Program-made: the position numbers and the translations under genes
IMG/VR virus record: IMGVR_UViG_2531839179_000012
Strand: one strand, 5' to 3'
DNA length: 14,865 nucleotides
DNA from: a virus
Taxonomy: Duplodnaviria > Heunggongvirae > Uroviricota > Caudoviricetes
Shown here: piece by piece, positions 4,908 to 5,771 of the stretch
Layout of the letters: every line of letters begins with the position of its first letter
How positions within the stretch are numbered: the stretch's first letter is position 1
Notes under the pieces: model-generated
The model's input: only the letters and a program-made list of their open reading frames with translations
The model's database searches: none
What the model was told of the DNA's origin: nothing

Positions 4908-5003
4908 GAGATGATACCCCAGTTACGAACTTTGTTTCATGGTAACTAAGGTATCAAAGCATGGCAAGTAGTTTTTGATACTTTGGTTTCTTTTTGTATC
5001 TGG
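4908..5003. promoter_or_regulatory. Operator or promoter-like repeat region between the repressor stop and the downstream gene (OL-like)
   Basis: Contains TTTCATGG (4935-4942) and TTGATACTTTGG (4975-4986), both also present in the cI-cro intergenic region. Also an inverted repeat GTATCAAA(4951-4958)/TTTGATAC(4974-4981) and a small palindrome AGTTACGAACT. Confidence 0.35.
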
Positions 5004-5660
5004 TCAGAAAATATCCCACCTGGCATCAACCACAACACCTACTATTTCGCAATCATTGTCCATTTCTATGATGGGATATTGTGGATTAAGGGGCTTTAGA
5101 AACGCCTTCCCCATTTCAGAAATATATTTTTTGAATGTTGCTTCATTGGTGGATTTTTTTCTGGCGATGACGTAACACCCTGAAAAAACTTCTTTATCTG
5201 GATTGACAAGGATCGACATTCCTTCAGGAAATGTTATTCCTATAGGCGAAGTCATTGAGTCTCCGTGTACTTCCAGCCAGAAGCCCCTCTCACCAGCGTA
5301 TTTTACAGAATGCCTCCAATTATCCTGATCATACATGTTGTAGTCATCACCTGCAGTTGCGAATAATCCTGCCTGAACCCAGTTAATTACAGGGTAAGAG
5401 TGTGCTGTGTCTCTCTGGGGACAGCTCTTAACATTATTTTCCCAATACTTACCTTTTTCATCTCCGTTCTGAAGCCACTGCGGTGAACACTGCAGTGCCG
5501 CTGCGACTTTAAAAAGCGTGTCACCGTTGAAACTTTTTGTAAGACCTTGCTCGGCTTTACTGATTGCAACTCTGGTGACCCCAGCTTTTTTAGCCAACGC
5601 ATCTTGCGTTAACCCAGCTTTTTGTCGTGCGTTGATGAGGCGTTCACCTAAAGATTTCAT
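5004..5660 (-). CDS. Phage CI-type repressor: N-terminal HTH_XRE plus C-terminal S24 LexA-like self-cleaving peptidase domain (218 aa from the ATG at 5660)
   Basis: N-terminus MKSLGERLINARQKAGLTQDALAKKAGVTRVAISKAEQG (helix-turn-helix). C-terminus ...HGDSMTSPIGITFPEGM...VIARKK...FKKY (Ser-Lys dyad architecture). An AGGAGAAG ribosome-binding site precedes the ATG at 5660. The track's upstream start at 5735 adds 25 unlikely residues. Confidence 0.8.
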   Translation of the reverse strand: MKSLGERLINARQKAGLTQDALAKKAGVTRVAISKAEQGLTKSFNGDTLFKVAAALQCSPQWLQNGDEKGKYWENNVKSCPQRDTAHSYPVINWVQAGLFATAGDDYNMYDQDNWRHSVKYAGERGFWLEVHGDSMTSPIGITFPEGMSILVNPDKEVFSGCYVIARKKSTNEATFKKYISEMGKAFLKPLNPQYPIIEMDNDCEIVGVVVDARWDIF

Positions 5661-5771
5661 TTTTCTTCTCCTTTCATGGCTGCTGATACTAAAGTAACAG
5701 AATGTCTTGATACTTTGGATTCTCATGTTTAACATTCTTGGATAACAGAGTATCCGGTGTGAGGCTAAAGA
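5661..5771. promoter_or_regulatory. Divergent immunity control region (OR-like) with candidate PR and PRM promoters and operator dyads
   Basis: Plus strand: -35 TTGATA (5707-5712), 17-bp spacer, -10 TAACAT (5730-5735). Dyads ATGTTTAACAT (5725-5735) and GGATAacagagTATCC (5739-5754) overlap the predicted start site. Direct repeats TGATACTAAAG and TTGATACTTTGG. Confidence 0.45.

Follow-up and report, generated by a model that had tools for sequence, protein, structure and literature searches.

The window, that is, the whole 14,865-nt stretch of viral DNA analysed here, carries between positions 4545 and 5981 a region recognisable as the immunity module of a phiP27-type prophage (Table 1). At its centre stand a repressor gene, cI, and a divergent cro-like gene, separated by a spacer of about 100 bp, which is the gene arrangement of a lambdoid switch. 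The cI product is 98% identical to phiP27 L11 and 45% identical to P22 C2, with HTH_3 (E 1.4e-14) and Peptidase_S24 (E 1e-22) domains. It matches the lambda repressor 3bdn (E 2.5e-33) and its VQAG, GDSM and TFKK motifs align with those of lambda CI; the motif residues A97, G98, S135, K177 and K178 show no variation among relatives. An N-terminal HTH, a C-terminal Peptidase_S24 domain, an Ala-Gly site and a Ser/Lys dyad together place CI among the self-cleaving S24 repressors of the LexA/CI type. Its mRNA leader of about 20 nt includes a Shine-Dalgarno sequence. The cro-like product has zero matches in Pfam, even at E <= 10. On the other side of cI, the leftward gene product belongs to Pfam HTH_3 (E 1.1e-9), matches phrog_4739 and a CII-like phrog, and has phiP27 L10 as a homologue, so that three HTH-type proteins are encoded around the operator-like sites described below. 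No intrinsic terminator was detected by scan 3' of cI or between cI and the left-hand sites (OL), and to the left of OL, where the first gene encodes an HTH protein, neither an N-like antiterminator nor a nut site was identified. A search of positions 4400-6100 returned zero known RNA families at E <= 1.

Table 1. Genes, predicted promoters, putative operator sites and repeated strings in the phiP27-type immunity module (window coordinates).
Feature	Position	Strand	Description
Leftward early gene	4545..4907	-	120 aa; C-terminal HTH_3; first gene downstream of predicted PL
OL1	4911..4928		ATGATACCCCAGTTACGA; core 4913-4926, GATAC-CCCA-GTTAC; weaker site
TTTCATGG, left copy	4935..4942		overlaps PL -10 and start region; judged coincidental
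Predicted PL	4939..4967	-	-35 TTGCCA (4967-4962), 17-nt spacer, -10 TACCAT (4944-4939); consensus scan 9/12
OL2	4940..4957		TGGTAACTAAGGTATCAA; core 4942-4955
OL3	4975..4992		TTGATACTTTGGTTTCTT; core 4977-4990; left copy of 12-mer TTGATACTTTGG
cI repressor gene	5004..5660	-	218 aa; HTH_3 + Peptidase_S24
TTTCATGG, right copy	5672..5679		just upstream of cI Shine-Dalgarno sequence; judged coincidental
OR3	5683..5700		CTGATACTAAAGTAACAG; core 5685-5698; nearest cI; 9/10 dyad match
OR2	5707..5724		TTGATACTTTGGATTCTC; core 5709-5722; right copy of 12-mer TTGATACTTTGG
Predicted PR	5707..5735	+	-35 TTGATA (5707-5712), 17-nt spacer, -10 TAACAT (5730-5735); consensus scan 9/12
OR1	5739..5756		TGGATAACAGAGTATCCG; core 5741-5754; weaker site over predicted PR start; 9/10 dyad match
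cro-like gene	5772..5981	+	69 aa; Cro fold; divergent from cI

Repeated strings flank the repressor gene. The 12-mer TTGATACTTTGG, which an earlier note on this DNA had reported on both sides of cI, occurs in exact copies at 4975-4986 and 5707-5718, and these extend to a 17-nt direct repeat, TTGATACTTTGG[T/A]TTCT, that matches at 16/17 positions. The inverted copies described for the left region, GTATCAAA (4951-4958) and TTTGATAC (4974-4981), are both present, enclosed by 15-nt arms (4944-4958 and 4974-4988) of 87% complementarity. The dyad noted at the predicted rightward start, GGATAACAGAGTATCC (5740-5755), likewise exists and begins 5 nt 3' of the predicted PR -10 hexamer. A word of at least 12 nt common to both intergenic regions arose in 4/2000 shuffles, and seven of the window's 33 GATAC/GTATC pentamers fall within the 207 bp of the two intergenic regions. 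The same note had paired TTGATACTTTGG with a second string, TTTCATGG. Both strings lie where it placed them, but TTTCATGG does not hold up as half of a motif. It is seen three times in the window against 0.93 expected for an 8-mer (13/200 shuffles reached as many), its start precedes the 12-mer by 40 bp on the left but by 35 bp on the right, and relatives carry TTTTATGG at the left position and TCTCATGG or CCTTGTGG at the right. Its chance-level count, unequal register and non-conservation rule it out as a part of the operators.

The repeated unit is instead a 14-bp core within an 18-bp site, (TT)GATAC-N4-GTATC(AA), of which each side of cI has three copies, and not a single composite motif. 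When all 5-mer dyads with spacers of 0-8 nt were enumerated without bias, GATAC-N4-GTATC came out on top with six sites, three in the cI-cro spacer and three just downstream of cI; the same enumeration on 20 shuffles gave a maximum of 2-5 sites. A spacer of 4 was best, which yields the 5-4-5 core geometry of the 18-bp sites of P22 C2-type repressors. The extended form of the dyad reads TTGATAC-N4-GTATCAA, and the central positions, although unused in site selection, are T/A-rich in the symmetrised matrix.

For scoring, a PWM trained only on six other genera was scanned over about 14,800 window positions. The four best of these positions are OL3 (20.8 bits, rank 1), OL2 (18.8 bits, rank 2) and OR2 and OR3 (15.2 bits each), and these four sites appear strong. 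OR1 (5.1 bits) and OL1 (7.0 bits) score in the chance range of shuffles; they are apparently weaker, and it is their position and conservation that speak for them. OL1 matches the dyad at 8/10 positions. PWM matches at 3038 and 11705, outside the switch, lie inside IS or coding sequence with shuffle-range scores and were treated as chance. The lambda consensus operator (TATCACCG half-site, 17 bp) is absent from both intergenic regions.

Predicted promoters are interleaved with these sites. OR2 has the PR -35 hexamer as its left half, and the PR start is covered by OR1, an overlap of the kind seen in lambdoid switches. The OL sites, with cores at 4913, 4942 and 4977, surround the predicted PL as a second operator set would, in a layout shared by six other genera. 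OL2 lies within the PL spacer, its GTTAC half overlapping the -10; OL3 lies upstream of the -35 at a distance of 12 bp from the stop codon of cI; and OL1 spans about +4 to +21 of the predicted transcript, covering the Shine-Dalgarno region of the leftward gene. The promoter TTGATA-17-TAnnnT is retained at PR in the six other-genus relatives (in relative L069 the spacer is 18 nt), and the relatives from Klebsiella, Salmonella, Yersinia, Photorhabdus, Providencia and Citrobacter have TTGNNN-17-TACNNT at an unchanged position with respect to OL2. No PRM passes the consensus scan; weak candidates, including -10 hexamers contained in OR3, were assigned tentatively by positional analogy with P22.

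The sites are conserved beyond their surroundings. Across 49 distinct phiP27-type sequences, invariant columns make up 65% of the six 18-bp sites, against 28% of other intergenic columns and 31% of cI third codon positions (Fisher p 1.9e-7 and 6.7e-9, respectively). Among these relatives OL2 has 16/18 invariant columns and OL1 has 15/18. L069, whose CI is 86% identical, keeps the same six sites, OL1 included, one of them a perfect GATACTTTAGTATC, and shows the perfect palindrome GATACTAAAGTATC at the OL3 position; Stx2_12E129 carries a perfect GATACTTAAGTATC at OR1. OR2 and OL2 owe their conservation partly to the promoter hexamers inside them, and conservation alone therefore cannot separate operator from promoter function. 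The region is present in 195/5426 complete E. coli genomes (about 3.6%) and never in more than one copy per genome, which fits the expectation for an immunity specificity. The same immunity type is found among Stx1a, Stx2a and Stx2e phages as well.

Motif discovery across related immunity regions, the check proposed with the original observation, extended the pattern beyond E. coli. Homologous cI-cro modules were found in Salmonella, Klebsiella, Citrobacter, Yersinia, Photorhabdus and Providencia, with CI proteins 54-74% identical to that of the window. These intermediate relatives were reached via Cro homologues; a CI scan of genome contigs yielded distant relatives only (<=50% identity). The CIs of the six genera retain the recognition helix TRVAISKAE[Q/L], and GwwAC-N4-GTwwC sites stand 83-88, 59-64 and 27-32 bp before the cro ATG, with spacings of 24 and 32 bp. 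The OR3 site at 83-88 bp is found in 8/8 genomes retaining this helix. OR2, TTGATACTTTGGATTCTA, is identical in 5/6 other genera and differs by one base in Photorhabdus, where it falls slightly under the scoring cut-off, and a site at the OR1 position, 32 bp from OR2, exists in every genus examined. OL2 and OL3 are also present in the six genera, around the TTGNNN-17-TACNNT promoter; OL1 is not clear in several of them. The leftward gene differs among relatives, and in most genera small unrelated genes stand in its place. The persistence of the sites despite this turnover ties them to cI and cro, not to the leftward gene.

More distant repressors come with altered half-sites. The window CI, with the helix TRVAISKAEQ, goes with GATAC. 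L071 (CI 50% identical, helix SRMAISKIEM) has TAAAC-N4-GTTTA on both sides of cI, L130 and L131 (CI 48% identical, helix SRVTISKIEL) have GAAAC/GTTTC-type sites, and the P22-type helix goes with TTAAG-N4-CTTAA sites. Such co-variation of operator and recognition helix is the mark of immunity specificity in a lambdoid switch.

It could be argued that the repeats are promoter elements only, with TTGATA as a -35 and the remainder as promoter or UP-element context that binds no repressor. In the best PR candidate, TTGATA-17-TAACAT, the -35 coincides exactly with the right copy, the hexamer and a TAnnnT -10 are retained in the other-genus relatives and L069, and OL2 overlaps the PL -10 as well. The right TTGATA does double as the predicted PR -35, in line with this caveat, which the earlier note had already raised; the left one is the -35 of no conserved promoter. 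The left copy (4975-4980) lies upstream of PL on the opposite strand and points into the cI 3' end; as the -35 of a rightward antisense promoter it was rejected, since neither the window nor any relative has a conserved -10 at a distance of 16-18 nt. Moreover, OR3, OR1 and OL1 are the -35 hexamer of no predicted promoter, the partner halves of the dyads and their A/T-rich centres are conserved too, and the half-sites on both sides of cI change jointly with the repressor helix, which promoters would not require. We consider a promoter-only origin very improbable. Marginally less credible still is that the left-right similarity is chance, or the functionless remnant of an ancestral duplication. 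The 17-nt repeat does stand in direct orientation, as a duplication would leave it, and TTTCATGG does look like chance. Against this, site conservation clearly exceeds that of the neutral proxy, the positions stay fixed from genus to genus while the surrounding spacers diverged, and the cross-genus PWM singles the sites out of the whole window.

A rival with somewhat more to recommend it, though still improbable, holds that the sites are real operators of another protein, either Cro alone or the leftward HTH protein, and not of CI. Several HTH-type proteins are encoded nearby, and the central region of Cro is almost invariant across genera, as is OR2. However, the sites remain where the leftward gene has been swapped for unrelated small genes, and the shift from GATAC to TAAAC or GAAAC follows changes in the CI helix while the Cro central region stays nearly constant. 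To our knowledge, operators are common to CI and Cro in every lambdoid switch studied, and the P22 annotation shows the same sharing, which also speaks against a protein other than CI.

The GATAC motifs flanking cI are thus most probably OR and OL of a phiP27-type lambdoid immunity region under a P22 C2-like repressor. This is how the earlier note had read them, as non-lambda operators with a GATAC-type half-site, and dyad discovery, conservation, cross-genus position, co-variation, predicted-promoter overlap and the P22-like layout all bear that reading out. It follows from the lambdoid gene order, from non-random and selectively conserved sites at constant positions across genera, from their co-variation with the repressor, and from their overlap with consensus promoters. 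CI, with an HTH of the P22 C2/lambda CI type and an S24 domain, would bind the 18-bp sites as a dimer. At OR, occupancy of OR2 (PR -35) and OR1 (PR start) would switch off cro and the rightward early operon. Weak candidates for the -10 and -35 hexamers of the cI maintenance promoter fall in OR3 and OR2, and we propose that occupancy of these sites would hence autoregulate cI. At OL, binding between the PL -35 and -10 (OL2), upstream (OL3) and just downstream (OL1) would silence leftward early transcription. The 69-aa Cro-fold protein may use the same sites in lytic growth, and RecA-stimulated self-cleavage of CI at the conserved Ala-Gly site would release PR and PL. From sequence we infer the identity of the binding protein, the order in which the sites are occupied, cooperativity and the precise PRM. 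The literature searched, which did not extend to the phiP27 genome paper (PMC127862), contains no binding, footprint or transcription-start reports for a phiP27-type repressor and no match to the operator strings; the sites are unannotated and undescribed there.

The layout resembles P22 immC in that three sites directly adjoin the repressor gene on each side, each a 5-4-5 dyad within 18 bp with an A/T-rich, uncontacted centre. In the curated P22 record, OR1-3 abut c2 and OL1-3 lie just downstream of it, the PR -35 overlaps OR2, and PRM lies in OR2/OR3. The half-site, however, is (TT)GATAC here and TTAAG (ATTTAAG/CTTAAAT) in P22; together with the modest CI identity given above, this indicates that the specificity of CI differs from that of C2 and that the region is not of P22 immunity. 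OR spacing also differs, 24 and 32 bp here against about 25 and 23 in P22, which puts OR1 over the transcription start (4 nt past the -10 hexamer) instead of over the -10 as in P22, and the P22 repressor leader is only 4 nt long. The missing terminator 3' of cI and the lack of an identified N-like antiterminator or nut site set the module apart from P22 as well.

Both this module and lambda have divergent cI and cro genes, a tripartite OR, further operators at PL and a self-cleaving repressor of the S24 type, and two of the OR sites are 24 bp apart. The lambda operators (17-bp TATCACCGCCAGTGGTA-type) are unlike the present ones in sequence and length, and cI directly precedes OL here, without rexAB. 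Cro belongs to an all-alpha fold class by our analysis, whereas lambda Cro is of mixed alpha/beta fold. The switch is very probably of the ordinary lambda/P22 textbook kind, with a DNA specificity that the literature searched does not describe.

Other prophages of E. coli offer further points of reference. The CP-933P cryptic prophage of E. coli O157 has a lambdoid-like switch recognised on comparable evidence. There, repeated 18-bp palindromes lie between the divergent regulators PaaR2/YdaS, OL sites lie at a PL-like promoter, and the sites were confirmed by footprinting and reporters (PMC8630535). Those regulators are unrelated to the ones described here, PaaR2 is not an S24 protein, and the consensus there is GTTTAGTAA with four sites, whereas the present sites are predicted from sequence. 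Operator number varies among Stx phages, with three OR and two OL in 933W and four OR in H-19B (PMC8065619); the phiP27 type is a different immunity specificity from both. It has been listed only as a separate CI/Cro variant, Cro12, without operator description (PMC3430580).

The putative operator sites and the PR/PL layout offer targets for studying induction, and hence toxin release, in Stx1a-, Stx2a- and Stx2e-converting prophages, and knowledge of the operators aids prediction of homoimmune prophages. Moreover, the cross-genus series GATAC, GAAAC, TAAAC and TTAAG on a constant 5-4-5 scaffold forms a natural data set on specificity change in P22 C2-type repressors.

One further, doubtful possibility is that OL1 and OL2 double as an RNA switch in the phiP27 lineage. 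With no terminator between cI and OL, read-through leftward cI transcripts would carry both OL sequences, whose complementarity to each other spans 15 bp and continues in a CAUG/CAUG extension. In the predicted cI-sense hairpin (-20 to -24 kcal/mol) the leftward HTH gene has both its Shine-Dalgarno sequence and its AUG sequestered, while transcripts from PL (start at about 4932) would lack the 5' arm and be translatable. Three variants without a terminator have fold z-scores of -4.8, -5.8 and -5.9, and two terminator-bearing relatives have -0.6 and -1.0. The covariation test among relatives revealed no compensatory pairs; three one-sided changes keep pairing via G-U, and one relative breaks a pair. 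In the lysogen, such a hairpin would shield the first gene to the left from maintenance transcription, and it would account for the mirror-image deviations of the two sites from a palindrome, GATAC...GTTAC in OL1 and GTAAC...GTATC in OL2.

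The two spacers flanking the repressor gene, one between cI and the cro-like gene (5661-5771) and the other between the cI stop and the leftward gene (4908-5003), carry six putative operators built on a single dyad. All 5-mer dyads with spacers of 0-8 nt and at most two mismatches were enumerated in both regions. The best was GATAC-N4-GTATC, found six times and three times in each region; shuffled regions reached a maximum of 2-5. The half-site lengthens through its flanks to TTGATAC, and the site centres, which played no part in site selection, are T/A-rich. The flanks thus extend the 5-4-5 core to an 18-bp site of 7-4-7 geometry, as in the P22 operator TTAAG-N4-CTTAA. 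In the curated P22 record OR1-3 adjoin c2 and OL1-3 follow closely downstream, exactly the places occupied by the two spacers here. The earlier note had proposed right and left operators with GATAC-type half-sites, a reading supported at the sequence level by this enumeration, by conservation, by a cross-genus weight matrix, and by co-variation with the repressor.

Genes, putative operator cores, and predicted promoter elements of the immunity region
Feature	Position	Strand	Description
Leftward gene	4545-4907	minus	HTH_3 protein, left of cI
OL1	starts 4913		14-bp core
OL2	starts 4942		14-bp core
OL3	starts 4977		14-bp core
cI	5004-5660	minus	218 aa, HTH_3 and Peptidase_S24
OR3	starts 5685		14-bp core
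OR2	starts 5709		14-bp core
OR1	starts 5741		14-bp core
cro-like gene	5772-5981	divergent from cI	69 aa
PL (predicted)	-35 4967-4962; -10 4944-4939	minus	TTGCCA-17-TACCAT
PR (predicted)	-35 5707-5712; -10 5730-5735		TTGATA-17-TAACAT
PRM candidate (weak)	-35 5719-5714; -10 5696-5691		TCCAAA-17-TACTTT, by position as in P22 PRM
PRM candidate (weak)	-10 5691-5686		GTATCA-16-TAGTAT, by position as in P22 PRM

The segment 4545-5981 shares 95% identity with the immunity region of the Stx2e phage phiP27 (genes L10, L11, and L12) and about 84% with a set of Stx1a- and Stx2a-converting phages. The 864-bp region spanning both spacers is present in 195 of 5426 complete E. coli genomes, as a single copy in every carrier. 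The cI product is 45% identical to P22 C2 and matches lambda CI (E 2.5e-33) in an alignment that also lines up the Ala-Gly site and the Ser/Lys dyad. The cro-like protein found no match in a Pfam search and has a confident predicted fold (pLDDT 90.5, 34-sequence alignment). Its family, phrog_4749, is without a Pfam model, and the central region GKWxxRGVPEDVAILCH is almost invariant across genera that differ in CI helices and half-sites. Cro may read the common inner AC...GT part of the sites. The leftward gene varies in length: its product has 120 aa in the window, against 138 in phiP27, 149 in E. coli FDAARGOS_944, and 215-216 in the Stx phages. Because its HTH_3 match (profile positions 1-49 of 55) reaches the last residue, this copy may have undergone C-terminal truncation or recombination.

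IMG/VR and phage records supplied 49 distinct phiP27-type sequences for comparison. Within the six 18-bp sites, 65% of their alignment columns are invariant, compared with 28% in the remaining intergenic sequence (Fisher p 1.9e-7) and 31% at cI third codon positions (p 6.7e-9). L069, a closer relative than the other-genus modules below (CI 86% identical), keeps all six of these sites, including the perfect palindrome GATACTTTAGTATC. A search with Cro, followed to the encoding contigs, recovered homologous modules in Salmonella, Klebsiella, Citrobacter, Yersinia, Photorhabdus, and Providencia, whose CI proteins are 54-74% identical. In all six genera, GwwAC-N4-GTwwC sites lie 83-88, 59-64, and 27-32 bp upstream of the cro ATG, equivalent to spacings of 24 and 32 bp; OR2 of Photorhabdus has one base changed and falls just under the 9/10 scoring cut-off. 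OL2 and OL3 are likewise present in all six, 34-35 bp apart. The sites are independent of the leftward gene: they persist in most genera even where unrelated small genes have taken its place. The OR2 18-mer TTGATACTTTGGATTCTA (5707-5724) is identical in five of the six modules (L120, L123, L126, L128, and L129), though the flanking spacers have diverged. Its weaker half, GGATTC, is conserved equally to the strong half.

A weight matrix trained on the six other genera only and scanned across the whole window ranked OL3 (20.8 bits), OL2 (18.8), OR2 (15.2), and OR3 (15.2) first to fourth, where the best score in shuffles averaged 10.1 bits and peaked at 16.4. OL1 (7.0) and OR1 (5.1) score within the chance range, and position and conservation are what point to these two sites as operators. 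Half-site type co-varies with the CI recognition helix. The window and the six genera (CI identity 54-100%) share the helix TRVAISKAE[Q/L] and GATAC or GwwAC half-sites, while the Serratia-type module L071 (CI 50%) combines SRMAISKIEM with TAAAC-N4-GTTTA on both sides of cI. Relatives L130 and L131 (CI 48%) pair SRVTISKIEL with GAAAC/GTTTC-type sites, and P22-type modules (CI 45-46%) pair the P22 helix with TTAAG.

Every string singled out in the earlier note was located at the coordinates given there, and its claim of a shared motif holds for all of them except TTTCATGG. The 12-mer TTGATACTTTGG (4975-4986 and 5707-5718) lies within a 17-nt direct repeat whose copies differ at one position. 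A shared word as long as the 12-mer arose between the two regions in 4 of 2000 shuffles, so the 12-mer is beyond chance. GTATCAAA (4951-4958) stands opposite TTTGATAC (4974-4981), GGATAACAGAGTATCC (5740-5755) lies downstream of the predicted rightward -10 hexamer, and 7 of the window's 33 GATAC/GTATC pentamers fall within the 207 bp of the two spacers. TTTCATGG (4935-4942 and 5672-5679) was rejected as an operator part: it occurs three times against about one expected per window, it stands 5 bp closer to the 12-mer on the right than on the left, and it is altered in close relatives.

The promoters are consensus predictions. By the PR hexamers, OR2 would include the -35 element and OR1 would span about -3 to +15; TTGATA-17-TAnnnT is retained in all six other-genus relatives, and in L069 with an 18-nt spacer. 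On the left, OL2 occupies the PL spacer, and the -10 takes its initial three bases from the GTTAC half of OL2. OL3 sits upstream, and OL1 spans roughly +4 to +21. TTGNNN-17-TACNNT also surrounds OL2 in the six genera. The left TTGATA copy was discarded as a promoter element; it is directed into the cI 3' end and has no conserved -10. The PRM candidates are modelled on P22, where the annotated PRM has its -35 within OR2 and its -10 within OR3.

From this layout we infer the occupancy logic. CI dimers on OR2 and OR1 would block PR, and dimers on OL2, with OL3 and OL1, would block PL. With OR3 and OR2 lying over its weak putative promoter, cI would be autoregulated. Cro would act at the same sites during lytic growth, and SOS-induced self-cleavage of CI would derepress both promoters. 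Two Rha/Ant-like anti-repressor or regulator genes downstream of cro (7317-8090 and 8012-9859; compare phiP27 L14 and L15) suggest a possible anti-repressor route of induction besides self-cleavage.

In both its genes and its sites, the switch belongs to the lambdoid CI/Cro family, with P22 immC as the nearest characterised system. Its specificity is neither that of P22 nor that of lambda, as half-site sequence and spacing differ. The OR3-OR2 spacing equals the 24 bp between lambda OR1 and OR2. The OR2-OR1 distance of 32 bp, roughly three turns of the helix, occurs in neither phage and puts OR1 on the start site rather than on the -10. No description of these operators was found in the literature searched, nor any match to the operator strings, although the repeats might already stand in the original phiP27 paper. 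The phiP27 RefSeq record has CDS features only across the region, and comparative Stx-phage papers simply list the phiP27 CI and Cro as variants of their own (PMC3430580). The comparisons support an ordinary operator set, though one not described in the sources searched.

In the phiP27 lineage, no intrinsic terminator was found between the cI stop and OL (4908-5003). The Klebsiella, Salmonella, Yersinia, Photorhabdus, Providencia, Citrobacter, and Serratia modules (L120, L123, L126-L129, and L071) have a GC hairpin and T-run after cI. Mutual complementarity of OL1 and OL2 would allow cI-sense RNA to form a 15-bp hairpin with a CAUG/CAUG extension. The predicted structure (4905-4963, minus-strand RNA; -24.4 kcal/mol, z -4.8) spans the leftward gene's SD and AUG. 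Other terminator-less variants give similarly low values (L069, z -5.8; Stx2_12E129, z -5.9), and two terminator-bearing relatives lack a strong hairpin (z -0.6 and -1.0). No compensatory substitutions were seen among relatives, so the hairpin is kept here as a candidate structure.

The window is rich in IS elements, and no single locus in any complete E. coli genome covers 80% of it. Compared with an E. coli prophage (FDAARGOS_944) that is elsewhere 95-97% identical, 6056-6970 is a 915-bp insertion with DUF4096-type IS4/IS5-family transposase ORFs (6115-6564 and 6444-6959), located 75 bp past the cro stop within the early rightward operon. Further left, IS600 matches of >99% identity (887-1830 and 3049-3377) are split by some 1.2 kb that contains a 383-aa ORF (1836-2987, minus strand), and 887-3377 looks like one IS nested inside another.
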